The notes beneath the pieces were generated by a model, which saw only the letters and a list, made by a program, of their open reading frames with translations, was not told the origin of the DNA and did not search any database. A DNA stretch of 64,000 bases. It comes from Octopus vulgaris. Lineage: Eukaryota. Of the stretch, positions 7,884 to 64,000 are shown one piece after another (the stretch's first letter is position 1; each line of letters starts with the position of its first letter). Where the stretch lies: assembly GCA_951406725.2 (NCBI GenBank), contig OX597821.1:40920001-40984000 (forward strand), written 5' to 3'. Made by a program: the position numbers and the translations under genes.

Positions 7884-8141
7884 TCTTTCGTTTTTGGATT
7901 TGGTTTGCAAGATTCTTTTTATGAGTTCGTGTGTTGAAGCATATTCTGTTGTGTCTGGGGAGAGTAATTTTCTTTTTGTGCCTTATTATGTAACACACAC
8001 ACCAGTCAAAACTATTGAAAAGGTTGCAAGACACAACAAAAATTTTAGGACAATAAAAATATGAAAAAAGTGGAAATTTTACCGGTGAGTATGTTAAATT
8101 ATAAGGCACAAGAAGAAAATGACTCTCCCCAGACACAACAG
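7884..8141. mobile_element. Fold-back retro-insertion (family F, probably Penelope-related) with 12-bp TSD
   Basis: agtgtttatgaa at 7872-7883 and 8142-8153; inverted arms 7945-8011 and 8077-8142; homologous copy at 37688. Confidence 0.75.
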
Positions 8142-8494
8142 AGTGTTTATGAAAATTCTCTTAAATGGGACAAGGGAGAGAACCTTGAAATGTCAATGAA
8201 AAAAAATAATAATAAAGGGAGATAATCAAGCAGCTTTAGAGATTGTGATGAAAGAAAACCTACTTGAAGCTGAAATTTCCATTGAAGTTTGAAAGTCTAA
8301 AAGATGAAAAGAATCCTTCATTATGTATCCTGAGCTGTGTGTTGACATGTATTTCTAGCATTGTTTGGGTTCCTGAATCAAATCTGCATCAATTTCAGCA
8401 GTTGATTATTTGATTCTAAGCCTGATCAATATCATTGTTAGTTCCACTCTTATCAGTGAAACCATCTCCAACAACACCAAAACCACCCTACTAT

Positions 8495-9275: not shown

Positions 9276-9804
9276 AGATCTATGATCAAAGCATTCCATT
9301 TATGACCATCCCACCTTATTTTTCAGTTTATATAAGTGGAGATATATTATATGCACTTTTACGGTCACCATCCAGGTGGCAGAATTTTGACCTCTGTGGG
9401 GGAGGTCAGTTTCTTGCTTGTGGATGAGGGATTGAACGATGTGAAGGTAGAGACCTATGATCAAAGCATTCCATTTATGACCATCCCACCTTCTTTTTCA
9501 GTTTATATAAGTGGAGATATATTATATGCACTTTTGAAGTCACCATCCAGGTGGCAGAATTTTGACCTCTGTGGGGGAGGTCAGTTTCTTGCTTGTGGAT
9601 GAGGGATTGAACGATGTGAAGGTGGAGACCTATGATCAAGGCATTCCATTTATGACCATCCCACCTTCTTTTTCAGTTTATATAAGTGGAGATATATTAT
9701 ATGCACTTTTGAAGTCACCATCCGGTTGGCAGAATTTTGACCCCTGTGGGGGAGGTCAGCTCCTTGCTTGTGGGTGAGGGATTGAACGATGTGAAGGTGG
9801 AGAC
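9276..9804. repeat. Tandem triplication, 175-bp unit x3
   Basis: tatgatcaa.gcattccatttatgacc starts at 9281, 9456 and 9631; units nearly identical. Confidence 0.97.
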
Positions 9805-10399: not shown

Positions 10400-10616
10400 G
10401 AAATGTTAGCACGTCGGGTGAAATGCTTAGCGGTATTTCGTCTGCGTTACGTTGTGAGTTTGAATTCCGCCGAGGTCGACTTTGCCTTTCATCCTTTCGG
10501 GGTCGATAAATTAAGTACCAGTTACGCAATGGGGTCGATGTAATCGACTTAATACCTATGTCTGTCCTTGTTTGTCCCCTCTGTGTTTAGCCCCTTGTGG
10601 GTAATAAAGAAATAGG
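10400..10616 (+). mobile_element. SINE family B inside the RTE
   Basis: Head gaaatgttagcacg, body and gtaataaagaaatagg tail. Confidence 0.92.
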
Positions 10617-11328
10617 TACTATGCTATACTTTCAGAGCAGCCATCTCCCTTACTAATTATAGATCCTAGGTGACAAAACCCTATCAACAACTTCTAATGA
10701 GCCATCTGGACATTTAAGACACTCTATTTCCAGTGTGTTCCTAGAAACTGCTTCAGTGCCTCTACTGCAAATGAAGTTTATACTTCCTGATAATCTGCCA
10801 GTGATCCCATTATATCTGCTGTGATGTGTTCATAGCTTACATGAGTACAGCATATGGAATTTATACCTGTTTCTTTTCTGCATATCAAAGAAGGCATTTC
10901 TCAGAAGATACCAGGGTCCTGTCTTATTTCCTACTGACTAAAACCCTTGTCTTTGCTAAGTTTACCTTAAGGCCTCTCAATTTCAGGTTTAACCTCTAAT
11001 TCTGGAATTTCTTCTCTAATGCCCCAATAGTCATCTATGAGAACTAGATCATCAGCTTACAAGAGTTCCTGTTGACAGCCAGTCTTAAGCTTCTCTGTAA
11101 TGGATTGTAGGACCAAGAGTGAATAGGAGAGGACTGAGGACTGAAACTTGATTGACTCCTGCCTTCATGTTAAATTCTTCACTAAAGTCATTGCCATCTC
11201 TCACTTTACTTACAACTTTCTTGTACATAGCTTGAACTGCCTGCATAAGCCATTCATCTGTTTCTAGATTAAACAGAGCCACCAAATTACTGAACATGGT
11301 ACCCTGTCAAATGCTTTCGCCAAATCAA

Positions 11329-16967: not shown

Positions 16968-17371
16968 TACTCTCTTTACTTGTTTCAGTCATTTGACTGC
17001 AGCCATGCTGGAGCACCGCCTTTAGTCGAGCAAATCGACCCTGGGTCTTATTCTTTGTAAGCCCAGTACTTATTCTATCGGTCTCTTTTGCCGAACCGCT
17101 AAGTGATGGGGACGTAAACACCAGCATCGGTTGTCAAGCAATGCTAGGGGGACAAACACAGACACACAAACACACACACACATACATACATATATATACA
17201 CATATATACGACAGGCTTCTTTCAGTTTCCGTCTACCAAATCCACTCACAAGGCATTGGTCGGCCCGAGGCTATAGCAGAAGACACTTGCCCAAGATGCC
17301 ACGCAGTGGGACTGAACCCGGAACCATGTGGTTGGTTAGCAAGCTACTTACCACACAGCCACTCCTGCGCC
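16968..17371 (-). mobile_element. SINE family A, full length, young
   Basis: Complete head ggcgcaggagtggctgtgtggtaag through to the tail; CpGs retained. Confidence 0.95.
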
Positions 17372-17771
17372 TATGAAAATATTTGATCAAAAGTTCAAAT
17401 CTGAGCTGATTTCAAGTGAAATAACAATATAGACGTAACATGTCTAAAACACAAATTCCCCATCATTTATCTTGATACCATCTCCATTGTTCAAACCACA
17501 TTTTTTATTCAAACATAATTTTGTAAAGGATGTTTGTAAGTATGAAGAACCAAATTATTCTGTGACTAATCTCATTCTCTTGGGTTTTAGGATCACTGAC
17601 TTTGGGTATTCCTTTAGCTAAGTTCATTCTATTACAAGTATTTGGGTCACTGATCAAAGAAGCTTATGATTACAGGTATTCCATTCATGCACCACCCACC
17701 CTACCACACGCCCTTATTTTCAAGTATAGTGTCACGAAGACAAATTTGTCAAAATGGTTTTTCTATTTTAA

Positions 17772-28268: not shown

Positions 28269-28570
28269 CGTAATAAATAAAATATAAGGATAAAATCTAT
28301 ATAAGAACTTATCAAGATGCCAGTGTGAAAAACCAGTTCAGGTAAAAATTAATACAAAGTATATAATTTTTTCTTTAAATATAAAATACATTAACTATAT
28401 TAAGGGTTAATTACTATAAGTAAATGCCTCACACTTTATGGGACTCTAAAGTCAAACTACTTCAATAAATATACACAGGCACCAAAATCGAGGGAATGGA
28501 ACATGGAAGTTACCTTTTCTAAAAGGTAACAGCATGAGGCATTTGCTTAAAGTAATAGCCCTTAATATAT

Positions 28571-28800
28571 ATTTCTTTACTACCCACAAGGGGCTAAAAA
28601 CAGAGGAGACAAACAAGGACAGACAAAGGGACTAAGTCGATTACATCGACCCCAGTGCGTAACTGGTACTTAATTTATCGACCCCGGAAGGATGAAAGGC
28701 AAAGTCGACCTCGGCGGAATTTGAACTGGGAACGTAACGGCAGACGAAATACGGCAACATATTTCGCCCGGCGTGCTAACGTTTCTGCCAGCTCACCACC
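28571..28800 (-). mobile_element. SINE family B, full length
   Basis: Complete unit; ttaatata on both sides. Confidence 0.93.
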
Positions 28801-28850
28801 TTAATATAGCCCTTAATATAATTAATTTATGTATATATGTGTGTGTATAC

Positions 28851-34552: not shown

Positions 34553-34571
34553 ATATATATATATATATATA

Positions 34572-34733
34572 GGCGCAGGAGTGGCTGTGTGGTAAGTAGC
34601 TTGTTAACCAACCACATGGTTCTGGGTTCATTCCCACTGCGTGGCATCTTCGGCAAGTGTCTTCTGCTATAGCCCCGGGCCGACCAATGCCTTGTGAGTG
34701 GATTTGGTAGACAGAAACTGAAAGAAGCCTGTC

Positions 34734-34775
<42 letters not shown>

Positions 34776-34996
34776 GTGTGTGTGTTTGTGTGTCTGTGTT
34801 TGTTCCCCTAGCATTGCTTGACAACCGATGCTGGTGTGTTTACGTCCCCATCAGCTAGCGGTTCGGCAAAAGAGACTGATAGAATAAGTACTGGGCTTAC
34901 AAAGAATAAGTCCCGGGGTCGATTTGCTCGACTAAAGGCGGTGCTCCAGCATGGCCGCAGTCAAATGACTGAAACAAGTAAAAGAGTAAAAGAGTA
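34572..34996 (+). mobile_element. SINE family A, full length
   Basis: Complete unit. Confidence 0.95.
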
Positions 34997-35019: not shown

Positions 35020-35091
<72 letters not shown>

Positions 35092-35330
35092 ATAGTTGGA
35101 ATTTACAGAAAAATAGACAAAGAGAGGTGTATAAACAAGAAACATGTGCGTATACGTGAGTGTGTGTGTGTATGTGTGTGTGTGTATGTGTGTCTGTGTC
35201 TGTATATGTATGTATGTATGTGTCTGTGTATGTATGTATGTATGTGTGTGTATGTATGTATGTATGTATGTATGTGTGTATGTATGTACGTATGTATGTA
35301 TGTATGTATGTATGTGTGTATGTATGTATA
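34997..35330. repeat. (TA)n(GATA)n and (TG/TATG)n microsatellites
   Basis: Direct reading; a short family-E fragment lies at about 35093-35147. Confidence 0.9.
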
Positions 35331-37175: not shown

Positions 37176-37499
37176 TTGTCCCCCACCACCACTTGACAAC
37201 CCCTGTTGGTGTTTACATCCCTCTAGCTTAATGGTTTGACAAAAAGAAGCTGATAGAGTAATTGCCACATTTAAAACATACTCCTGGGGCCAGCTCATTC
37301 GATTAAAAGTTTTTCAAGGCAGTGCTACAGCATGGCCACAGTCCAAAGACTGAAACAAGTGAAAGGTAAAAGTTAAATGATAAAAGACATATATACATAC
37401 CTCTACATATACACATTCACACACATATATACATATATATACACATATATGTCTATATATATATATTTATGATTGACCTCTAGATCCAAAAGTTTTTTT

Positions 37500-37655
37500 A
37501 TTCGCACACTCTTTATTTCCTCATGTTCCTTTCTGATGAAGAGCATAGGCTTGAAACACAAAAGACTTTCTCACCTTCTCAAGCATCAAACTAATACACC
37601 TGTTTGTTGTTTATACACCTGTCTTCATCTTTTGTTTTACTGTAAATTTCAACGA
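37500..37655 (+). mobile_element. Family E short element with hammerhead motif (37528-37565)
   Basis: ccttt CTGATGA a gagc atag gctt GAAA ca ca aaaga; downstream ctaatac..acacctgtcttc..ttttgttt shared with the other E copies. Confidence 0.75.
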
Positions 37656-37687
37656 TATATATATATATATGTGTGTATGTATGTATA

Positions 37688-37973
37688 TTTCGTTTTGGGA
37701 TTTGGTTTGCAAGATTCTTTATGTGAATTCATGTGCTGAAGCATACTCTGTTATGTCTGTGGAGAGTCATTCTCTTTTACCGCTTTATAATTTAACACAC
37801 TCACTAGTTAAATTTCCACTTATTTCTTTTTTTATTTTTCTAAAATTTTTGTTGCATCAATTGAAAAGGTTGCAAGACACAATGAAAATTTTAGGAAAAT
37901 AAAAAAGAAATGAGTAGAAATGTTCCCAGTGAATGTGTTAAATTATAAGGCAGTAAAAGAGATACAACAGAAT
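37688..37973. mobile_element. Fold-back element, family F (second copy)
   Basis: Same head as 7884; inverted segment restarts at ttgaaaaggttgcaagac (about 37861). Confidence 0.8.
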
Positions 37974-38342
37974 ATATACAACAGAATGGAAGCTGCATGT
38001 ATAATGCATAACTTAGAAGCAGCACTCAGATGTACCAACACACACAAGATTGAAACATAGCCGACCTCATGCACTTCTCATGAGGAATTCCTGAAGGAGC
38101 TTCGTGTGACCAATGCTGAGATGCTTCCGAAAAAAGAAAAGCCATTGGGAAGCCAATCATAGCAGCGACTCCATCTAAGAATATCTGAAGAAGGAATTGT
38201 ATTCTGAAATATTATCAGACTATGGATAACTAAATTACAACAGGTATATAGTCCATTTTTTGTATTATAGTGCATTGTTGTACCATTCAAAACTTTTTAT
38301 TCTTCACAAACAATACACAGTGCTTCAAGCGAACTACAATAC

Positions 38343-38377
<35 letters not shown>

Positions 38378-38378
<1 letters not shown>

Positions 38379-38668
38379 TTGAGCGTGATCATTGCCAGTG
38401 CAACCAGACTGGCTCCTGTGCAAGTAGCATGTAAAAAACACCTTTTGAGCATGGTCGTTGCCAGAATTGCCTGACTGGTGCTCATGCCAGTGGCACGTAA
38501 AGGCACCTACTACACTCTTGGAGTGGTCGGCATTATGAAGGGCATCTAGCTGTAGAAACTTTGCCAGATCAGATTGGAGCCTGGTGCAGCCATTTGGTTT
38601 GCTAGTCCGCAGTCAAACCGTCCAACCCATGCCAGCATGGAAAGCGGATGTTAAATGAAGATGATGAT
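38378..38668 (+). mobile_element. RTE 3' UTR fragment with (GAT)n tail
   Basis: Internal UTR repeats; ends catggaaagcggatgttaaatgaagatgatgat. Confidence 0.85.
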
Positions 38669-38685
38669 ACACACATATATATATA

Positions 38686-39573
38686 TGAGGTGGTATCAAA
38701 AAGTTCCCAGACTAGTTCTGTAGCATGCCAACAGATGGCAGCACACAGTTGTGTGCTCAGTAATAGTTAGCATTGATCTTGATGAGGCACTGTGACAAGT
38801 GGGATTGCTATGTTTACTTTGCAGGTTGTGAAATTTGTGCTTTTGTAATCAGATGTATGCTGTAGTCTGTGATTTTGTCATGAACAGGAACAAAGAGCCA
38901 ACATGAAATCTTGCATTAAACTTGAGAAGTCTTCTACAGAGACATTAAGCTTATGATGACAAGGCAATTGGTCATACACAATGTTCTGAGTGGCACAGAC
39001 ACTTCAAAAGTGGAAGAACATCTCTAAAAGATGATGAGCAATCTGAAAGACCTGCCTCAAGTGCCACCCCTGGAAGTGTGGTATTGTGCATTGAGAATCC
39101 ATCCCCCAGGGCCAGACCATCAATCGAGAGTTCTACTGTGATGTTTTGATCCATTTGAGGGAAGACACTTGGCAAAAGTGACCAGATTTGTGGTGTATGA
39201 AGAATTGGATTCTTTACCAAGTTCTCTTCATTCATGAGTTTCTCACCAAAAACAACATGGCATCGCTTCTACTCCCAGCCTATTCACCAGATTTAGCACC
39301 CATGAGCTTCCATATTTTCTCCAAGATGAAAAGGCAGCTCAAAGGTCGCTGTTTTAACACCATTGTCAAGATCAAGAGTGAATCACAGAAGGTCCATGAC
39401 TCGCTTACAGAAATTGAGTTCCAAGCCAGGAATGCCAAGATGTGGCAGGAATACATGGAGTGGTGTATCATTGTGCAAGGTGATTATTTCAAGGGAGAAG
39501 ATGTTAAAACTTGGGCAAATAAGTTATTTTTTATTAAACATAACTAGTACTGGAACCGTTTGATACCACCTCA
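38686..39573 (+). mobile_element. Internally deleted mariner (~890 bp) with both TIRs
   Basis: tgaggtggtatcaaaaagttcc..actagt / actagt..ggaaccgtttgataccacctca; EQRANMK..FKSGRTSLKDDEQS joined to PGQTINREFYC..YSPDLAP..QGDYFKG; WVPHEL and first-D region missing. Confidence 0.93.
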
Positions 39574-39814
39574 TGTGCATATATATGCATATAAACATAT
39601 ATATATATAAATAATGGATGAATGAATTATCCTTTGTTTACTGTTAACATGGAAAATTCAATAAACAGCTACAAGAGTAGCAAAATTCATGCAAGTAACA
39701 AGGATGTAGTGACCTATTCAAAGGTAGAAACTCCGAGTTAATGTGCAGTAATTTGTAGTATAAGTAAATAAATTATTTACTTATATATAAATATATATAT
39801 ATATACATATATAT

Positions 39815-39985
39815 AGGGAAAGTTTACGAAAAAAACAAAAGACGAAGACAGGTGGTGTACAAAATAAACAGATGTATTAGTATAACGCTCAGGAATAGAA
39901 AAAGTCTTTTACGTTTCGAGCCTACGCTCTTCTACAGAAAGGGACACAGAAAATGTGTGTAGTGGCTAACGATCTATCATGGCAA
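39815..39985 (-). mobile_element. Family E short element with hammerhead motif (39905-39942)
   Basis: Minus strand: ccttt CTGTAGA a gagc gtag gctc GAAA cg TA aaaga; flanked by (TA)n. Confidence 0.8.
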
Positions 39986-40029
39986 CTATATATATCTATA
40001 TATATATATATATATATAAATATACACTT

Positions 40030-40072
<43 letters not shown>

Positions 40073-40394
40073 TACAAATACACTGTTTTGTACATGAATA
40101 TATCTTATTTAACTAATGCCAAGCTGCCAAAAGCACTGATATTCTAATTAGTCTGTCCCCTACGGTGCTAGCTAAATTTTTCTTCTTTACATAGCTTCTG
40201 AATATACAAGACTTTTTGGTGGGAAAAAAAGTGGAGCACGTCTTCACTGACAATTGGTCAACAGACTCTGAAAACGTGTCCAGTGGGAGTTAGCTCCCCC
40301 TTTTTTTTTTACTGTAGATTGATGGCAAAACACAAATGTGTTGACGTTCTTAGAATTTGCTTTTACAGTGAAAGACTTTCAAATATTTACATAC

Positions 40395-40830
40395 TATGTA
40401 TGTGTGTGGGTGTAAATGAGCATGTAAGAGCAAGTGAATGTGTAATGTGTGTGTGTGCGTGTGTGTGTGTGTATGTGTTTGTGCGCATGCGTAAATGAGC
40501 ACGTGAGCGTGAGTGAATGTGAGTGTATGTGTATATGTGAGTGTATATGTGTGTGTGTATGTGTATATGAGTGTGTGTGTGTGTGTACATACATATGTAA
40601 ATGTGTGTATGTATGTGTATGTGTGTGTGCGTAAATGAGCATATGTGAATGCGCATGTAAGTGTGAGTGAATGTGAGTGTATGCGTATGTGTATATGTGT
40701 GCATGTGTGTGTGTGTGTGTATAAGTTTGCGTGTGTGTGTGTATGTGTGTGTATGTGTGTGTTTGTGTTTGTGTGTGTTTGCGTGCGCGTGTGCATGCGT
40801 GTGTATCTATGTGTGTGTGTGTATATGTGT

Positions 40831-40899
<69 letters not shown>
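40395..40899. repeat. (TG)n-rich compound microsatellite
   Basis: Direct reading. Confidence 0.95.
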
Positions 40900-40901
<2 letters not shown>

Positions 40902-41271
40902 CAGTGAGAGTTTTCGCATTACCATGTTTACATTTCAATTTCTAGTCAGGCAATGCAAAAGTAAAAAAAAAAAATTAAGCATTTATAATTGTTTTTTTTG
41001 TTATTATTTTTTTTTTTTTGCTATTTTCCAATGTTTCTTTGCCATCTAATTATTTTTTTTTTTCATTATTATCTTTCAGAAAATTATTAAATTTCTGTTT
41101 AATTAATTGGAAACACAACTATAACAACTAAGTCTCTCTTAGACAAATGTACACATGCCATTACACATTTCTCAGTCAAACTTTTCCTAAAGTAACATTT
41201 TTAAGTGACCATGTTTACCTACCAGTTCATGTGACAGGGAATGGCACAAAACAAAAAAAATATATATATTA

Positions 41272-41694
41272 GGCGCAGGAGTGGCTGTGTGGTAAGTAGC
41301 TTGCTAACCAGTCACATGGTTCCGGGTTCAGTCCCACTGCGTGGCATCTTGGGCAAGTGTCTTCTGTTATAGCTCCGGGCCGACCAATGCCTTGTGAGTG
41401 GATTTGGTAGACGGAAACTGAAAGAAGCCTGTCGTATATATGTATATATATATATATATATGTATGTATGTGTGTGTGTTTGGGTATCTGTGTTTGTCCC
41501 CCTAGCATTGCTTGACAACCGATGCTGGTGTGTTTACGTTCCCATCACTTAGCGGTTCGGCAAAAAGAGACCGATAGAATAAGTACTAGGCTTACAAAGA
41601 ATAAGTCCTGGGGTCGATTTGCTTGACTAAAGGCGGTGCTCCAGCATGGCCGCAGTCAAATGACTGAAACAAGTAAATGAAAAATGAAATGAAT
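41272..41694 (+). mobile_element. SINE family A, full length
   Basis: Complete unit. Confidence 0.95.
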
Positions 41695-41773
41695 ATTATT
41701 CTGAGTTTTGTTTGTTTTGTTTTTGTCTTACCTTTCTTCCCTCCTAATATTTTCCTCATTATCTTTCTACAAC

Positions 41774-42726
41774 ATGGCTGTGTGGAAAGCACCGGTATGG
41801 CAATGTGGTAAGAAGCTTGCTTCGCAACCACATGACTCTGGGTTCAGACCCACTGTGCAGCATCTTGGGCAAGTGTCTTCTACTACAGCCTTGGGTTGAA
41901 CAAAGCCTTGTGAGTGGATTTGGTAGACAGAAACTGAAAGAAGCCTGTCATGTGTGTGTGTGTATGTCTGTATGTGTGTATATATGTATGTACATATGTA
42001 TGTGTGTCATTGTTCAGTTTTATTTCAAGATTTGTTGCCAATAAAGAAAGAGCTGGTTTCTAACCTAGATTCAAGGCTCCTTCATTAGAATTTCAACATC
42101 AACAACACAGTAATTTTGTTGTATGTATGTATGTATGTATGTATGTATGTATGTATGTATGTATGCATGTATGCATGTTTGTATGTATGCATGTATGTAT
42201 GTATGTATGCATGTATGTATGTATGTATGCATGCATGCATGTATGTATATATGTATGTATGTGCAGATGTGTATGTTTTATGTATGTATTCTCATGCATG
42301 TAGTCGCATATCTCAACATGCTCATATATATTTAAATGATAAACTTCTGGAAAGTTTTACAGATTTTTACAGTTCCAGTGATGGATTGGATCTGTAGCCT
42401 TCGAATCAGCTTTCTCCTTTCTGGTTTTGAGAAGCCTAATTTCTCAAGATTGTTATTTAGGCAGTGTGTTACATATCCCAGGGCCCCAATAATTACAGGT
42501 ATAAACTGTATGCATGGATATCTATATTTGTCCCCTACTACTGCTTGACAACCAGTGTTAGTGTATTTATGTCCCTGTAACTTAGTGGTTCAGGAAAAGA
42601 GAATGATAGAATAAGTGCCAGCCTTAAAAAATACTAAGTACTGCAGTCAGTTCATTCAGCTGAAACCCTTGATGGTGGTGCTCCAGCATGACCACAGTTT
42701 AATGACTGAAACAAGTAAAAAATAAA
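41774..42726 (+). mobile_element. Older SINE A split by an R4/Dong-like LINE (halves 41774-41950 and 42527-42726)
   Basis: Halves rejoin across the internal microsatellite. Confidence 0.8.
42008..42507 (-). mobile_element. RLE-type (R4/Dong-like) LINE 3' end
   Basis: FIPVIIGALGYVTHCLNNNLEKLGFSKPERRKLIRRLQIQSITGTVKICKTFQKFII* (42506-42332); PVIIGALG is typical of restriction-like endonuclease LINEs; (TATG)n in the 3' UTR. Confidence 0.8.
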
Positions 42727-43130
42727 ATCATTAAATTTTCTTCTTTTAATCAATTTAATCAATTTAATCAATTGCAATCAAGACTACGTCCCCTATGTTC
42801 TTACACAAATATGCAAATGATATTTCCTTATCCCCTTAATCTACTTTGTAATATGTGACCTCTGGATTACAATGTTTGGCATGTTCCAGCATTGATAAAA
42901 ATATGTGGCCTTCATCAACTAGAGCAGTATTCTGAGCTGGGCCGTGTATATGATAATAATGTATACATACATACAAGCATACATGCATACATACATACAT
43001 ACATGCATACATACAAGCATACATGCATACATACATACATACATGCATGCATGCATGCATACATACATACATATATACATACATACATACATTCTTACAT
43101 GCATACATACATACATACACACATACATAT

Positions 43131-43366
43131 AAATCCTTAAATCCTTAAAAATGTTTTAGCCCGAAGGCCGCGGCCATGCTGGGGCACCACCGCTGAATGA
43201 GCTACACTAGTTTGTGAATCCACCTCTGATACGTGGCACTTGATCAACAAGGGAGTTCGATGCTGCTGCCCGCATCCGCGTCTCCTGTCGTGAGGTAGGT
43301 TCATCTGGGACTCCCAACAAGAAGAGATCCAGTTTAGTTTTAAAGAAACCCACATCCACACCATGT
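43131..43366 (-). mobile_element. CR1-type LINE 3' end with a short tandem (AAGGATTT-like) tail
   Basis: HGVDVGFFKTKLDLFLLGVPDEP..AASNSLVDQ; 3' UTR matches the SINE A 3' end. Confidence 0.88.
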
Positions 43367-43371
43367 AATAT

Positions 43372-43744
43372 ATGCATACATACATACATTCATTCATACA
43401 TACATACATACATACATATATACATACATACGTACATACATACATACATACATACATTCATTCATACATACATACATACATACATACATACATACACACA
43501 TACATATATACATACATACATACATACATACATACATACATACGTACATACATATATACATACATACGTACATACATACATACATACACACATACATATA
43601 TACATACACACATACATATATACATACATACATACATACATACATGCATACATACATACATACGTACATACATACATACATACATACATACGTACATACA
43701 TACATACATACACACATACATATATACATACATACATACATATA

Positions 43745-43778
<34 letters not shown>

Positions 43779-43885
43779 CATACATACATACATACATATA
43801 TACATACATACATACATACATACATACATACATACATACATACATACATACATACATACATACATGCATACATACATACGTAAAT
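43372..43885. repeat. (TACA)n microsatellite, ~510 bp
   Basis: Direct reading. Confidence 0.98.
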
Positions 43886-44122
43886 ACATACAGGAGCTCA
43901 AGCATTAAAGTTACCTGGACCCTCATTGAGAACAAGACTCAACTAAATGAATTTATCATAATGTGTAAACATGGCTTTCAGGGTCTCTGTATTAGAGTTT
44001 TGTATGGGTCTATGTACTTAAAGGGTCCCTAACTTGTAAGAACAAAACTGAAACCAATTGTTAGGAAAAAGTTTGCACTAAACGATACAAACCTTCCCAA
44101 ATGGCTGAATCTTTAATCCCTG

Positions 44123-44541
44123 TCTTTTACAAGTTTCTGTCATTACACTGCGGCCATGCTGGAGTACTGCTTTGAAGGATTTTAGTCAAAGAAATCAACC
44201 CCAGTATTCATTATTTGTTAAAGCCTCCTACTTATTCTAGTCTTTTTAACTGAACCATTAAGTAATAGGGACATAAACACACCAGCATCGGTTGTCAAGC
44301 CATGTTGGGGGGACAAACACACACAAACATACACACACGCACATATACATATGTATATATACATATATACAATGGGCTTTTTTCAGTTTTCGTCTACCAA
44401 ATCCACTCACAAGCCTTTGGTTGCGCTCAGGCTATAGTAGAAGACACTTGCCCAAGATGCATGGCATCTTGGGCAAGTGGGACTGAACCCGGAACCATGT
44501 GGTTGGTAAACAAGCTACTTACCACACAGCCACTCCTATGC

Positions 44542-44542
<1 letters not shown>
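44123..44542 (-). mobile_element. SINE family A
   Basis: Full unit with a small local inversion (cttgcccaagatgc / gcatcttgggcaag). Confidence 0.9.
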
Positions 44543-44576
<34 letters not shown>

Positions 44577-44609
44577 CAACAATTTTATATAATGTAATAT
44601 TTTGAATTT

Positions 44610-44656
<47 letters not shown>

Positions 44657-44795
44657 GGGAAGCTTTATGAAAATAAACAAAAGACGAAGGCAGGTGGAAA
44701 ACAAACGAACAATTGTATTAGTATGGCGCTCAGGAAATATAAATAAAACAAGTCTTTAACGTTTCGAGCCTACGCTCTTCAACAGAAAGATACAC

Positions 44796-44797
<2 letters not shown>
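44657..44797 (-). mobile_element. Family E short element with hammerhead motif (44753-44790)
   Basis: Minus strand: tcttt CTGTTGA a gagc gtag gctc GAAA cg TT aaaga; inside (TA)n. Confidence 0.8.
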
Positions 44798-44840
<43 letters not shown>

Positions 44841-45050
44841 TATAGGGTGGCGAATATTCGTTATAAATATCACCACCAGTGGCCTAGCATGTATAAATAG
44901 TCAATAGTCAATAAATAACAAGGTAAAAGTTTTTATTTTTATTTTACTTCGAAATTTGATATTAAATTGTGGTTTTGGCCGTGTTAGCTGCTATTTCTAG
45001 CATGTAAAAATTACCAGTTAAATGGTAATTTTCTTTTTTAATATATATAT

Positions 45051-45199
45051 ATGACAGACTTCTTTCAGTTTACATCTTCCAAATCCACTCCCAGGTCTTT
45101 GGTTAGTTTGAAGTTATAACAGAAGATACTTGCTCAAGGTACCACACAGTAGTGCTGAACCCAGAACCATGTGGTTGGATAGCAAGCTTCTTATCACAC
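45051..45199 (-). mobile_element. SINE family A, 5' half, diverged
   Basis: Homology to the family. Confidence 0.8.
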
Positions 45200-45813
45200 C
45201 TTGCCAAACCATGAAATCCTGAAATTTTTCATGAGTTACATTCACTACCTGAGGGTTGATGATAAATCAAACAAAATGTTTATGCCACAGCTGTGAATTT
45301 TCAGGGCTACAGAACATACAAACACAAAAAGGGACTTATCAAAAATAACTCAGAAATATCTGAGCTTCAAGCGTTAATTATACCAGAAATTGCCCTAATT
45401 CTAATTTGCTAAAAGAAAAGCAAAAGCCTTGGTCTTTAGACAGCCTATGTGGCAATTATTTTCGTTATATGCTGAAAGATTTCATTTAAATGACAAATGT
45501 ATATCACCATCATCACCACCACCACCCCATCACTACCACCACCACCACCACCATTGCAAGAATGATGGACAGTTCAGAATAATAAGATATAAGAAATTCA
45601 CAACTGAGCATATCATATGTGCATTCCCATCATCAGCTGTCTAAACGGATATCACTATAGTTTTGGCACCTAGGCAATACCATTCAATTTAGCATAGGTA
45701 AATTGGTAGAATAATTAGAAAATCAATGAAATAGTTTGTGGTGTATATCTGGATCTCTCTTGTTTGTGACATCCAACATAATTGAGGTCAACTTGGCTTT
45801 TTATATGTGTGTG

Positions 45814-45847
<34 letters not shown>

Positions 45848-45938
45848 TATATATATATAGTTAATATATATATATATATATAGTTAATAAAAACACTTAT
45901 ATCAGAAAGAAGTATACTCTAAAAAATAGAGCAGTAAT

Positions 45939-46044
45939 TATTACAACAAAATTTTATAGAGTTACCAAAGGTTTCACACCCACAAATCCAAAGCCCTGTG
46001 GGTACAAAACCTTGGGTAACTCTATATAAAATTTTGTTGTAATA
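45939..46044. repeat. ~46-bp-arm inverted repeat
   Basis: tattacaacaaaattttatagagttaccaaaggtttcacacccaca / tgtgggtacaaaaccttgggtaactctatataaaattttgttgtaata. Confidence 0.9.
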
Positions 46045-46081
46045 TATATGTATATATACATATATATACATGCATACATAC

Positions 46082-46129
<48 letters not shown>

Positions 46130-46304
46130 ATGTATGTATGCATGTATGTATGTATGTATGTATGTATGTATGTATCTATATATATATGTATATATACATG
46201 TATATACATACATACATACATACATATATATATATACATTTATATGCATTCATATATATATATATATATATTTATCAAAATAAAAACATGATGCAAAGGA
46301 TTTA

Positions 46305-46392
46305 GCGGTACATATCTTTCTGGCTTTTATTAGACGGTTTATATCAATGCATAATTGATGTAATTTGTATGTCAATAGCCTTCTCCAGCCGC
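46305..46392 (-). ncRNA. Degenerate type-I hammerhead with long stem II
   Basis: Minus strand: gcgg CUGGAGA aggcu...agcca GAAA gauaug UA ccgc. Confidence 0.55.
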
Positions 46393-46414
46393 ATACAATT
46401 ACTACTCCAAGGAG

Positions 46415-46458
<44 letters not shown>

Positions 46459-46751
46459 TACTACAGCAATGTAACAACACACATGCCATTGGCAATTTTT
46501 GTTCCTGCTTTGAAATTTTCCCTTTCTCCTCTCCAATGAAGAGCCAGGCTTAAAACATCAAACTCTTTTCTTTCACCAAGCATCAAGCTAATACATTTCT
46601 TGTGCGCATACTCATGTTGTCTGTTTTTATTTGCTTATTTGAATTGACTATATATGTATATGTGTGTGTATATATATATATATATATATCATCATCATCA
46701 TCATCATCATCATCGTTTAGCATCCGTTTTCCATGCTAGCATGGGTTGGAC

Positions 46752-46838
<87 letters not shown>

Positions 46839-46976
46839 TCATGTATGTATACATATGTGCATGTATGTGCACACTCATGCATGTGTGCACATATATGCAC
46901 ACACACATACAAAAATAACACGTTGACTTAATATCACATTACATATAGTCAAGCTTATACACAGACACATAAATAT

Positions 46977-47022
<46 letters not shown>

Positions 47023-47172
47023 TTAAAACAGCTCCTCTAGACTTAACATTTTATAAGCAAAAAATGTGCCCAGCTTCTGAGATATATGAAGTTAAAATGA
47101 AGGAAATTATATAGAAATTTAGAACCCAATAACTAGGTGACAATATTAAAGCCATCGTTGGCCAGTTCAGGA

Positions 47173-47541
47173 ACTCTTTACTCTTACTCTTTTACTTGTT
47201 TCAGTCATTTGACTGCGGCCATGCTGGAGCACCGCCTTTAGTCGAGCAAATCGACCCCGGGACTTATTCTTTGTAAGCCCAGTACTTATTCTATCGGTCT
47301 TTTGCTGAACTGCTAAGTGATGGGGACGTAAACACACCAGCATCGGTTGTCAAGCAATGCTACAGGGACAAACATATACATATATACGACAGGCTTCTTT
47401 CAGTTTCCATCTACCAAATCCACTCACAAGGCATTGGTCGGCCCAAGGCTATAGCAGAAGACACTTGCCCAAGGTGCCACGCAGTGGGACTGAACCCGGA
47501 ACCATGTGGTTCGTAAGCAAGCTACTTACCACACAGCCACT
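47173..47541 (-). mobile_element. SINE family A
   Basis: Near-full unit. Confidence 0.93.
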
Positions 47542-48229
47542 GTGGACTATTTGGCAATGGGAGCAGCTGGTTCCATTTTATACACCACATACTAGAAGAG
47601 ACAGTATATTGGCACCAGGCAGATGATATTCTGTAAGATTCGAGATTTCAATGACAATAGTTACTGACATAGTAGCTGGTATGGTACCCAGTTTGCTGGT
47701 GTCAGGTTAGATACCTGTTTATGTGTGAAACATGGCTGGATGGTTTAATCATGGATGAGTAATAACAAATCATGGGGATAACAACAAGAAGGGAAAATAT
47801 ACACTCACCAAATGCAAACAGGGATTATATTACCAGCAGTTGCATTTGGGACAACTACAGTGGCCAATAGTTTGAAGTTCACTAACGTAGTGTATCTTAG
47901 TTACCTCACTAGGATAGACTGGTTTCCCAGTTGATGGGTACTGCTGGCTTTTGTAATATATACTGTTTCTCAACAGAGCAGAGTGAGCAACAATATGCTC
48001 CAAGTGAAACAGGAGTCAGTAATTCATTGAGTATACAGCTGCAAATGTATGTCTTTCAAGTAATCTTCAACAACAAAATCATTCTTTCAAGTGCTTGATC
48101 ATGTTAGCAGGAGTCGGACAGGTTTTTTTCAGCTCAAAATCACACAACATACATACATTCATTGTAAATATATGTATAAATGTATGTATGAATGTGTTTG
48201 TGTGCAAATATAAACATAAATGTATATGT

Positions 48230-48591
48230 AAGTAGGTATGTATGTATGCAGAGAGAGAGAGAGAGAGAGAGAGAAAGATAAAGTTATATATATATATATT
48301 TATATATATTTGTGTATTGATATGTATCTGTACACACACACACATACATTTATACATACACATTGGTAGCTGCATATATATATATATATCTACATATCTA
48401 TCTATCCATCTATCTATCTATATATATGTATATTTATATGTATATATATACATATATATATGCATGCATATATATATATATACATATATACATATATACT
48501 TATATATATATGTGTATATATATATGCATATATATGTATATATCTGTATCTATCTATCTATCTATATATACATATGTATATATATATATAT

Positions 48592-48641
<50 letters not shown>

Positions 48642-48987
48642 ACATATATGAACATACCTTAACTAATGAGATTACTAAGTGCAGGAGGCAGAAAGTTTAT
48701 CTCTCACATCACATTCATTTCTGGAACTAATAAACGAGGAGTTCAATAAGTACAATACAGTTAGCTGTTATATTTATCTTGACTGTAATTGATCATTTGA
48801 TCAAAATGAAATTGTTTTGTTTGCTAAGAAATTTGTATCATTTCAGATAATTGCTCCAATGAAGTCTGAGACGTGAGTGTTAAGAATCTTATTATTCATT
48901 AACACATGTTCGTTCCTTGAAGTGCTGACTCTAACCTCAATACTTGTAGACATTCTCTGTGAGTGTGTGTGTGAGAGAGAGAGAGAT

Positions 48988-49021
<34 letters not shown>

Positions 49022-49171
49022 TGTGTGTGTGGGTGTGCATAAGGGTGTGTGTGCATATGTAGATGTTTGTATAGAACTCTCCTCATATAAGTATACATGC
49101 GTATATACATATGTGTGTGTAGGTATGAAAATAAGTCTATGCATTTGTATTGACATGTGCACATGTTTGTT

Positions 49172-49215
<44 letters not shown>

Positions 49216-49233
49216 CACATATATATATATACA

Positions 49234-49289
<56 letters not shown>

Positions 49290-49700
49290 CATGTATATTT
49301 GTATGTATAATCTATACATAGTCACACACACAGATACACACATGTGTTTGTGTGTATGTGCATCTTATGTGTGCATTGCATGTGTGCAACCATTCATACA
49401 GATGCATGTGTTTGTGAATGTATGTGCACACATTCATCCACAACTTCAAGACACTTCTCTCATCAGCTCTCAACTGGAGATTGCAAAGATTTCAATGTCT
49501 TCTGATAGCATCACCCGGCTCTCCCCTCCCACTGTCTGCATATGTGTGTGAGTTTGGTAGAAAGAAAATGCTTGTGGTGTCTATACAAGTACAAAACTTG
49601 GGGACTTCATATATATATATATGCATGCATATTTATATGTACACAGACACACACGCACGCACACACATATACACACACACATATATATACATACATATAA
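48230..49700. repeat. Extended compound microsatellite region (TA, GA, TG, CA)
   Basis: Several tracts separated by short unique spacers. Confidence 0.9.
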
Positions 49701-51108
49701 TTCTTTTTTAAAAGATCTGATGAAACAATATTCTGATCTTATAGAATCGCCTGAATGGACTAAACGAAATGTTCTGATTTTGAGATGAAAGTATCTTTGG
49801 AAAGCAATATGGAATCAGAAATATGGAAGGAGGATTTGAAAGGAAGATACTAAAACATGGAGAACTTCAGGTGCAATGAATAGTGCTACATGTTGAGATG
49901 GGTTATTGCGAGTTTGTGGACAGAACCAAACCTGACTTTCAATGGAATTATAAAAGACAGCAGAGAAGAAATTCATGAACTGGAGCCGAAAAGCATTCTG
50001 ATTTCTTTTGGCCCTCATTCTAGCATGCATTTACCCCTCAGTTATTTATGAAACCATCAAAAACAAACCGATTGCAGCTATAACTACTAAAAACATGTAG
50101 CTGTTATTTTGTTTTACTATTTCTTGTGAATCAGACATTTTCTCTTATCTTTTGTCTTTCTCTTCTACATGTCGCCCACACCAATGATGGAATATTTTCC
50201 ATTCTTATTTCCATTCCATGAATCTGCCATCTTTCGTAAATTCAAGTACATTAGATCCTTCAGCATGGCTCCAGTCACAATCCATGATAATCCATGCCTA
50301 CAAGAAGTACCATACATTGCTCCATTTGTTTCTCAGGATCCCTTAATTCCTTCATGTCTTATACTCTACCTTTCATAACCTCCTTCTATATTCAATTCCT
50401 ACTGCATCCCCCACTCAAGAACATTTTTAGGGGTTAGCTCACACCCTGCTATAGAATCATGATTTCCATCCATTCTTTCATAAGATCATCCAAAGATTTA
50501 TCTTTTCAGAAAATAATTATATACATTTATTTATAAAATCATGTATAAATGCTCTCTTTTTTTCTCCCTGACTCATTCACACACACACACACACTCTCTC
50601 AATCTATCTCTCACACACATGTACATGTATGTGTGTGTATAAATATATATATATACTTATGTATGTCTGTATGTATGTATGTATGTATGTATATATGTGT
50701 GTGCATGTGTGTGTGTGTGTCCCTGTGTCTATGTGTGCATGTGTGTGTGTGTGTGTGTGTGTGTAAGCATACATTAATGCTGAACGGTGAGAATGAGTGT
50801 TCCCTATTACATTGGTGAATAAGTATTCTTTATTTGTAAGTTGACAAGGCAACCTATGGTTTCATGTAAAGAAGAAACTTCACAATTTTTCAAGCATGCC
50901 AGATGTTGCTATTTGTTTCCATTTGGGATGAGAATACACAAGGTTACACAAGACTGAATGAGATTTTGAAATAAGTGTACATATCATGTACATATAACTT
51001 ATAAGAATATTTCAATTGCTATCTCCCTTACATTAAACTAGATTAATGAATTCCATAATTACCTTATGCAAAAATTCTCATACACACCCATATTTATAAA
51101 TATATTCA

Positions 51109-51566
51109 GGTGATGAAGGTCATGGAGATGGTCATAGTCCAACTAATTAGGAAGTGAGTCTGCTTAGATCAGACATTGTTCGGCTTTGTGCCAGGTAGAA
51201 GGACCACTGATGCTATATTCCTAATTCGGCAACTGCAAGGGAAATACCTATATTTGGCTTTTGTGAACTTGGAGAAAGCCCTCCCCACCCCACCCCAACT
51301 GGCTCCTGTGCTGGTAGCACATAAAAAGCACCATCCGAATGTGGCCAATACCAGTGTGGCCTGACTGGCTCGTGTGCTGGTGGCACGTAAAAAGCACCCA
51401 CTATACTCTCGGAATGGTTGGTGTGAGGAATGGCATCAAGATGTAGAAACCTTGCCAGATAAGACTGGTGCCTGGTGCAGCCTCCTGGCTTGCCAGTCTT
51501 CAGTCACACCATCCAACTCATGCCAACATGGAAAGCGGACATTAAACGATGATGATGATGATGATA
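51109..51566 (+). mobile_element. Internally deleted RTE: RT N-terminal part fused to the 3' UTR
   Basis: VMKVMEMVI..FGFVPGRRTTDAIFLIRQLQGKYLYLAFVNLEKA, then UTR and (GAT)n tail. Confidence 0.85.
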
Positions 51567-51569
51567 TGT

Positions 51570-51760
51570 TGGATCGTTAGCCCCTACACGCAATTTTTTT
51601 TTCTCTCCTTGTTTCTTTTCTGAGTATCTTTCCGTCGAAGAGCGTAGGCTCAAAACGTAAAAGACTTGTTTTATTTCTATTCCTGAGCACCATACTAATA
51701 CATTGTTTGTTTGTACTCCACCTGCCTTCGTCTTTTGTTTATTTTCGTAAACCTTCCCGA
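51570..51760 (+). mobile_element. Family E short element with degenerate hammerhead (51627-51664)
   Basis: tcttt CCGTCGA a gagc gtag gctc AAAA cg TA aaaga; reverse complement of the 39815 copy. Confidence 0.8.
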
Positions 51761-51825: not shown

Positions 51826-51990
51826 ATATATATAAGAGATAATAATGGTGTCATTGAGACCCAAAGGTGTTAGGTAATGCTGAATAGGTGCTATAGACAG
51901 ACCATAGTTAAGTTCCAGATTCGGTAATATTGTGAATAAAGGGTTCAACGTTGGTTCTATGTCAGCATGCGTATATAGGAATTTTTTGGG

Positions 51991-52084
51991 GTAATGGGAT
52001 AAATAACCAAGGCTGTATCAATACTAGATCATTTATAGATAGATGCTCTAATATCTATACAGCCTTGGTTTTTTATCTCATTAC
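51991..52084. repeat. ~46-bp-arm inverted repeat
   Basis: gtaatgggataaataaccaaggctgtat.. / ..atacagccttggttttttatctcattac. Confidence 0.9.
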
Positions 52085-52132
52085 GCAAAAATATTCATAT
52101 ACATATATACATATATATGAACACATACAGAT

Positions 52133-54456: not shown

Positions 54457-54767
54457 ATGTTAGCTATATATTTACGCATGTATATATCATATTAAATAAA
54501 ATATTGCAATACAAATGTATTGCTTTCCAGTAAAATAAAGCACCATACAAGTAGAAGCATAAATATATTGGTGCCTTCTTGTACTACTTCTGTATATTTA
54601 TACTTCTACCTTTACGGTGCTTTATTTTACTGGACAGTAATACATTTGTATTGCAATATTTTAGTTTTCATTGAAAACCTTTTCACTGTTCTTGGTCTGT
54701 TAGTGGCTAAGCATTCAGGTGAGTCTACTGGCATTCATGTAGCAACATTTGAAATATTATCCAGGTA

Positions 54768-58990: not shown

Positions 58991-59432
58991 CGACAGGCTT
59001 CTTTCAGTTTCCGTCTACCAAATCTTTTACTCTTTTACTCTTTTACTTGTTTCAGTCATTTGACTGCGGCCATGCTGGAGCACCGCCTTTAGTCGAGCAA
59101 ATCGACCCCGAGACTTATTCTTTGTAAGCTCAGTACTTATTCTATCGGTCTCTTTTGCCGAACTGCTAAGTGATGGGACGTAAACACACCAGCATCGGTT
59201 GTCAAGCAATGCTAGGGGGACAAACACAGACACACAAATGCACACACATACATATATATATATATACATATATACGACGGGCTTCTTTCAGTTTTCCGTC
59301 TACCAAATCCACTCACAAGGCATTGGTCGGCCTGGGGCTATAGCAGAAGACACTTGCCTAAGATGCCACGCAGCGGGACTGAACCCAGAACCATGTGGTT
59401 GGTTAGCAAGCTACTTACTACACAGCCACTCC
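58902..59432 (-). mobile_element. SINE family A (59023-59432) plus an adjacent internally deleted partial copy (58902-59022)
   Basis: Tail joined directly to gggggacaaacacagac at 58931. Confidence 0.9.
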
Positions 59433-63432: not shown

Positions 63433-64000
63433 CTTGCTAACTACATGGTTCTGGGTTCAGTCCGGCTGTGTGGCACCTAGGGCAAGTGTCTTCTACTATA
63501 GCCTCGGGCCAACCAAAGCCTTGTGAATGGATTTGGTAGACGGAAACTGAAAGAAACCCATTGTATATATATATGTATGTATACAATGGGTTTCTTTCAG
63601 TTTCTGTCTAAAAGGCGGCGAGCTGGCAGAAACGTTAGCACGCCGGGCAAAATGCGTAACCGTATTTCGTCTGCCGTTACGTTCTAGGTTCAAATTCCGC
63701 TGAGGTCGACTTTGCCTTTCATCCTTTCGGGGTCGATAGATTAAGTACCAGTTATGCACTGGGGTCGATGTAATCGATTTAATCCATTTGTGTGTCCTTG
63801 TTTGTCCCCTCTGTGTTTAGGCCTTTGTGGGTAGTAAAGAAATATATATATATGTATGTATGTATATAGTGCTTGCGTGTGTGTGTGTGTGTGTGTGTCT
63901 GTGTGTGTCTCTGTGTGTCTGTGTGTGTGTGTTTGTTTGTGTCTGTGTTTGCCCCACCATCACTACTGATGCTGCTGTGTTTACGTCCCCACAACTTAGC
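63433..64000 (+). mobile_element. SINE family A interrupted by a fold-back and a SINE B; runs off the window end
   Basis: 5' half 63433-63567, inverted copy 63580-63610, 3' half from about 63930. Confidence 0.85.
63614..63844 (+). mobile_element. SINE family B, full length
   Basis: ggcggcgagctggcagaaacgttagc to gtagtaaagaaata. Confidence 0.95.

Follow-up and report, generated by a model that had tools for sequence, protein, structure and literature searches.

The question raised by this stretch of Octopus vulgaris DNA (64,000 nucleotides of contig OX597821.1, positions 40,920,001 to 40,984,000; hereafter the window) is what a small repeat, family E, is and why it carries a hammerhead ribozyme motif with U at the normally invariant core position A6. 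The analysis showed that family E consists of the 5'-truncated 3' ends, or pseudo-long terminal repeats (pLTRs), of an autonomous, recently active Penelope-like retrotransposon. For the motif, we lean, without strong conviction, towards a damped but retained U6 hammerhead on ends that insert from uncut RNA.

The first-pass annotation had placed four family E motifs in the window, and all four were confirmed at 37528-37565 (plus strand), 39905-39942 (minus), 44753-44790 (minus), and 51627-51664 (plus). They belong to copies of one common repeat of 140-195 bp, with a 3' end fixed about 95-105 nt past the predicted cut site and running into (TA)n. The copies and related fragments in the window were as follows:

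44657..44798, minus strand: 5'-truncated 3' pLTR of the youngest subfamily with an intact open reading frame (ORF); 149 of 150 bases match the pLTR of the long-ORF element L161.
44790-44753, minus strand: motif of that copy, core CUGUUGA, with U6 at 44782 and H17 at 44758.
39816..39983, minus strand: fragment of a 3' pLTR, U6-A7 subfamily; core CUGUAGA in the motif 39942-39905.
51566..51759, plus strand: 3' pLTR fragment; motif 51627-51664; 136 bits against the family E profile.
37490..37653, plus strand: decayed, similar to copies of an old subfamily; A6 at 37536 in the motif 37528-37565.
46484..46648, plus strand: heavily decayed pLTR of this group; 23 bits for family E and 27 bits for the sister family.
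About 35091-35148, minus strand: extreme 3'-end fragment of about 60 bp without the motif, followed by a simple repeat (self-BLAST).

The 44753 copy has (TA)n on either side and its predicted cut lies between 44758 and 44757, while the 39905 copy has U6 at 39934 and A as H17 at 39910. Only these two keep an otherwise intact core, because the 51627 copy combines U6 (51635) with U4C (51633) and G12A (51652, where AAAA replaces GAAA), and the 37528 copy, more decayed than the other three, lacks both the CG palindrome and U16.1. A fifth copy had been proposed near 46530; a decayed pLTR does lie there, but the two scores assign it neither to family E nor to the sister family. Exact matches to the 26-nt motif, the basis of all genome-wide counts given here, numbered 15,954 with U6 and 184 with A6 in the 2.8 Gb genome and none for a reversed control, which is far above chance. 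In Rfam, the motif alone gave no match at E up to 10, and the best 150 of 380 matches in a scan of the window were all microsatellite-driven.

With the 39905 copy as genome query, 1,763 candidates were obtained, and the best 40 of 1,763 were 97-100% identical, the 39905 copy included. Two of 30 fetched copies (L016 and L029) reached further upstream and, beyond a long stretch rich in C and T, entered a same-strand ORF. A protein search of the genome returned many copies with open frames above 1,000 codons, and 20 of the longest (1,024-1,202 codons) were fetched. YIDD was present in all 20 frames, DKG in 19, a CX2-5CxxC linker between the reverse transcriptase (RT) and the endonuclease (EN) in 20, the GIY-YIG pattern (IYC-x8-10-YIG, also read in the translation) in 18, and the start MPDPRSY in 11; median identity over the RT-EN region was 99%. 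Pfam gave an RVT_1 match (E 1.4e-7) and no GIY-YIG match at E 0.001, so the endonuclease call rests on the motif. The hammerhead motif stood on both sides of the ORF in 15 of the 20 loci, about 4.5 kb apart, with the upstream one about 750 nt before the ATG, giving an element unit of about 4.5 kb with a single ORF for RT, Cys-linker, and GIY-YIG.

Exact junctions between the pLTR and the 44753 subfamily's 5' untranslated region (UTR) numbered 148 in the genome, and the pLTRs arise from partial tandems with 5' truncation and a fixed 3' end. The identification of family E as the truncated end of this element follows from the motifs flanking the ORF, the 149/150 pLTR match, the 148 junctions, and the RT-EN anatomy. 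Seven matches in an evenly spaced 600 kb sample point to a copy number of roughly 30,000; the U6 motif is carried by about 16,000, intact young ones among them. The linkage to an RT/GIY-YIG ORF that the earlier annotation had suggested looking for was thus found, and its "solo pLTR" option was borne out. Its microsatellite targeting also held, since (TA)3 was present at the 3' end of 23 of 30 copies as against 14% of random windows.

The other option in that annotation, a separate non-autonomous element, did not stand. Short copies predominate, with a 5' limit that is soft and lies near -85, solo pLTRs may be transcribed and recopied, and two small tandem arrays exist, all of which would suit an independent non-autonomous retrozyme or a short interspersed nuclear element (SINE) with its own master. 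The short copies, however, align collinearly with intact-element pLTRs at up to 99% identity, their 5' ends are ragged, and the window copies are dispersed monomers and not tandem units, so that an independent element appears very improbable. Non-coding tandem units each with a hammerhead were seen in the two rare arrays elsewhere in the genome.

Those arrays are L381 (G000:C8:18,597,001-18,607,000), with five motifs in near-identical 492-493 bp units, and L376, with a 468 bp unit. The units of both consist of the pLTR and part of the 5'UTR of the U6 element, and they resemble incipient retrozymes. Pairs of family E ends in inverted orientation at L008, L158, and L208/L209 have the 5'-inversion structure known for Penelope-like insertions, and fragments of remoter Penelope-like ORFs, about 29% identical to the family E protein, were noted at L084:5052-6328 and L267:2126-3025.

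The extent of 111 copies upstream of C3, measured approximately against two subfamily references, was less than 40 nt in 14, 40-87 nt in 75, 88-140 nt in 1, and further in 21. From this gap we infer that RNA starting about 85 nt upstream of the core, probably at a pLTR promoter, would be the source of most short copies. A different route would be open if U6 were fully competent, with tandem transcripts cut and ligated to circles, and rolling reverse transcription of these yielding partial tandems. The 148 exact seamless junctions, the upstream copies whose lengths range freely up to 1.36 kb, and the five-motif array are what such circles could give, and with a circular template no 5' end would be expected at the cut. 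We nevertheless consider this route quite unlikely: linear RNA with the site uncut better fits 75 of 111 5' ends lying 40-87 nt upstream and only 1 in the next 53 nt, and changes at A6 lower activity in the hammerheads in which they were assayed, as far as the available parts of those reports go (A6C, not A6U; PMC3088659, PMC7151607).

The architecture of the motif agreed with the earlier proposal of a minimal type-I hammerhead of the Penelope kind, as predicted from sequence. It has a 4-5 bp stem I, G10.1-C11.1 in stem II, the extra nucleotide following A9, and the palindromic 15.2-16.2. In hammerheads, N7 and H17 are the two free positions. Among 23 incidental copies found through their flanks, polymorphism was confined to N7 (U 10, A 5, C 5, G 3) and to H17 (A 16, U 6, C 1, never G), and other differences occurred in 1-3 copies each, mostly at CpGs. 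In contigs of four runs labelled as four other organisms, variants listed at a 3% threshold fell within the motif only at N7 and H17. The majority flanks of seven subfamilies differ by 8-40%; only these flank divergences were used from the subfamilies, since a conservation figure for the motif by which they were picked would be circular. C3, U4, G5, G8, A9, G12-A14, and U16.1 thus stay fixed in family E while N7 and H17 vary, and because only the free hammerhead positions vary, the motif looks constrained.

This pattern bears on the possibility that catalysis has been lost and the motif persists as a relic, either a protein-bound hairpin or a promoter or RNA-processing signal of the pLTR. Fixed core positions, H17 never G, and variation at N7 and H17 are what hammerhead catalysis would be expected to leave, and they speak against a dead relic. 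On the other side stand the rod-like off-fold predicted for U6, the U4C change in 8,393 copies of the sister lineage (its youngest sampled type having a stem I mismatch beside an open RT-EN stretch), and the lack of an excess of cut-site ends among the listed truncations or of any such end among 48 upstream pLTRs. According to the parts of the literature consulted, Naiads proliferate without canonical hammerheads (PMC8557442) and cleavage was dispensable for insertion (PMC11167929). With both sides considered, a dead relic seems rather unlikely, but it is a serious alternative.

The U6 core was found across the whole lineage. The genome-wide count, which took in U6 and A6 motifs, was given above; the 20 long-ORF loci held 37 same-strand motifs, all with U6, and U6 was likewise present in 44 of 44 upstream pLTRs that reach the motif. 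A downstream-flank search gave 82 copies showing the motif, with U6 in 76, A6 in 3, and C6 in 3, and 4 further incidental matches without the motif. The earlier annotation's picture of a U6 subfamily beside retained A6 was not upheld, as U6 occurred in every sampled subfamily and in the intact masters, while A6 copies made up about 1% and were scattered over the tree.

In that tree (30 A6 and 30 U6 copies, with the motif left out of the alignment) the A6 copies were not clustered, requiring 21 changes as against 20.3 with shuffled labels. The 17 non-U6 copies of the 37528-type subfamily had C in 9, A in 5, and G in 3, an ordinary mutation spectrum. Because A6 copies are scattered over the tree, they are most simply, and probably, back-mutations, the 37528 copy included. 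The statement that one window copy keeps A6 thus holds for the base but probably not for its retention, that copy being the most decayed. Related families in the genome keep A6 (96 of 100 among the matches listed), and for this reason U6 is probably the derived state, the tree itself being unrooted. One criterion of the Penelope-like minimal hammerhead, a CUGANGA core with A6, does not describe family E; its motif fits that class on sequence grounds except at A6, which is altered across the whole active lineage.

Folding predicted pairing of U4-G5-U6 with A15.1-C-G in U6 motifs, which would hide the ACGU dimer palindrome. The predicted probability of the G5:C pair was 0.98, 0.86, 0.53, and 0.13 for the four N7 types of U6; for four natural A6 copies it was 0-0.23. 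Folding of dimers was uninformative. The idea that U4C of the sister lineage strengthens the same off-helix as A6U was rejected (P about 0.01).

Copies run unbroken across the predicted cut site. Of 130 copies truncated within the motif, 100 were scored by eye (the first 30 agreed by script), and 10 of the 100 started at one or other of the two positions of the cut site, roughly as many as an even spread over about 22 scored positions would give. None of 48 upstream pLTRs started at the cut. In a mostly canonical control family (30 matches, about 7 set aside as indel-shifted or internal deletions), no clear cut-site step was seen (4 of about 23 usable), which makes the truncation test uninformative on activity; the data say only that inserted templates were mostly uncut or circular. 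Separately, a spliced intron ending in the motif was considered and, although Penelope-like copies keep introns, was unsupported: the predicted join occurred in 0 of 12 genomic deletion matches and in none of the contigs.

Published systems, as far as the parts consulted describe them, offer comparisons. Natural A6C hammerheads cleave slowly (PMC3088659, PMC7151607). For the Penelope-like element of the anole, ribozyme mutants had no effect on in vitro insertion, cleavage needed the protein, and no RNA ends at the cut were found (PMC11167929); the mostly uncut or circular inserted templates of family E agree with this.

The sister pLTR family, with a different stem II loop, had 8,393 exact copies with U4C and 3,556 with canonical C3-U4-G5. 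Its protein, from one C4 copy behind an open 634-residue RT-EN stretch, is 69% identical to that of family E, and the stem I mismatch noted above belongs to this copy; example loci of the family are L294, L310, and L321. Two measures were compared for the relative age of U4 and C4 copies, and they did not agree: decay at N7 was 2/100 for sister U4 copies and about 12/100 for C4 copies among the matches listed, and at flank CpGs it was 12/60 and 13/66, respectively. Because two lineages have spread widely with altered cores, the results support "damped or dispensable" over "fully active".

For a damped but retained U6 hammerhead, the proposed course of events is the following. The lineage-wide change from A6 to U likely leaves the motif folded but slow, damping cleavage as the core would be disturbed and the helix hiding the ACGU palindrome favoured. 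Insertion likely proceeds from uncut RNA, so weaker self-cutting would not stop the spread. RNA for most short copies would begin about 85 nt upstream of the core; the RT-GIY-YIG protein would nick (TA)n and prime at the TA tract of the pLTR end, and reverse transcription from that tract would go straight through the motif. Slow processing of tandem transcripts, probably protein-assisted or dimer-dependent, may be the reason why the motif is kept.

Several results weigh against this account. No compensatory changes in the stems were found within family E, where the stems are invariant. Between the sister lineages, stem I shows C-G swapped for G-C, a point in favour of constraint, and in a set of 12 motifs picked by hand from three lineages 2 of 10 pairs differ on both sides; this is weak evidence, as it amounts to essentially one inherited change. 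A role in protein binding or as a promoter could explain the invariance over 36 nt equally well. For the U6-G7 type, folding did not predict the off-helix (P 0.13), and misfolding in silico also occurred with canonical C7 cores. The missing step in the control family counts here as well, and the proposed start site has the 5'-end gap against two subfamily references as its sole basis.

A broader and doubtful idea is that successful Penelope-like lineages repeatedly fix core changes that damp the hammerhead (A6U, U4C), making it a switch turned on only by their own protein. If so, CUGUNGA would be a widespread natural hammerhead class missed by standard descriptors.

Other hammerheads and repeats were noted. 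Three canonical type-I hammerheads (A6, longer palindromic stem III), 353 and 718 bp apart at L061:3082-4153, are likely a tandem retrozyme, and more minimal families with canonical A6 cores and different stem II were seen at L068, L077, and L161 (minus strand near 9549). The window also contained two abundant, probably SINE-like repeat families, one of about 400 bp (for example 1399-1801, 16968-17382, 34561-34988, 41260-41680, and 59028-59432) and one of about 230 bp (10400-10635, 28546-28802, and 63609-63850). Long inverted repeats (palindromes of 130-200 bp) lie at 37771-37962, 7945-8142, 51974-52101, and 54494-54666, with a similar one in L028. A stretch of about 910 bp at 38674-39587 ends in inverted repeats of roughly 50 bp, and its interior resembles a decayed mariner-type transposase.

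Hammerheads are nearly universal in Penelope-like elements, although they cleave poorly and insertion did not need them in the one in vitro system. In the present case, the change at a normally invariant core position runs through every subfamily of a recently active lineage, and the motif is otherwise retained. Natural A6, U6, and C4 versions in one genome, together with intact U6 coding elements, make a direct test of catalysis against shape possible. At least 24,000 such motifs of this genome escape any search that requires CUGANGA.

No report of a family-wide A6U or CUGUNGA hammerhead was found in the literature searched, Lunse et al. 2017 not being covered, and in the available part of the octopus repeat annotation (PMC13282606), which describes recently active Penelope-like families, the word hammerhead was absent. 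Minimal hammerheads with the extra nucleotide and palindrome are already known from the pLTRs of Penelope-like elements (Cervera and de la Pena 2014, PMC4209133). In the sections of that paper used here, they resemble family E in being type I with a short stem I, in the extra nucleotide between 9 and 10.1 and G10.1-C11.1, in a palindromic CG replacing stem III, and in occurring once per pLTR and mostly in solo truncated copies. The representatives in its Fig. S3 have A6 in 56 of 56, whereas the family E core is CUGUNGA; the search descriptor used there required a conserved core, and the core variant described was U3-A8.

Among whole elements, family E resembles the Neptune/Nematis-type, endonuclease-containing elements (Craig et al. 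2021, PMC8557442, in the part drawn on) in its single ORF with RT, CX2-5CxxC linker, and C-terminal GIY-YIG, and in its partial tandems, inverted 5' pieces, and microsatellite bias, but differs in its altered hammerhead core. By the linker described there, the element appears to be of this type. The green anole's PAc Poseidon element (Frangieh et al. 2024, PMC11167929, likewise in part) shares AT-rich targets, reverse transcription that begins at a fixed internal point, a main template of uncut RNA (likely also in family E), and the lack of ends seen at the cut. The PAc ribozyme cleaves with protein and overlaps the ORF start, whereas the family E motif has U6 and lies well upstream of its ATG.

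The A6C hammerhead of phage Bcep176, from the available parts of PMC3088659 and PMC7151607, is also a natural position-6 substitution with the rest of the core kept, but it is a single C example, slow with Mg2+ and favoured by Mn2+, whereas family E has U in about 16,000 copies. Finally, an origin from Penelope-like pLTRs has been proposed for non-LTR retrozymes (Li et al. 2026 preprint, 10.64898/2026.07.22.740005, as far as its available text goes); the two short arrays of family E would fit this proposal, while the window copies, unlike those retrozymes, are dispersed monomers of an autonomous element.

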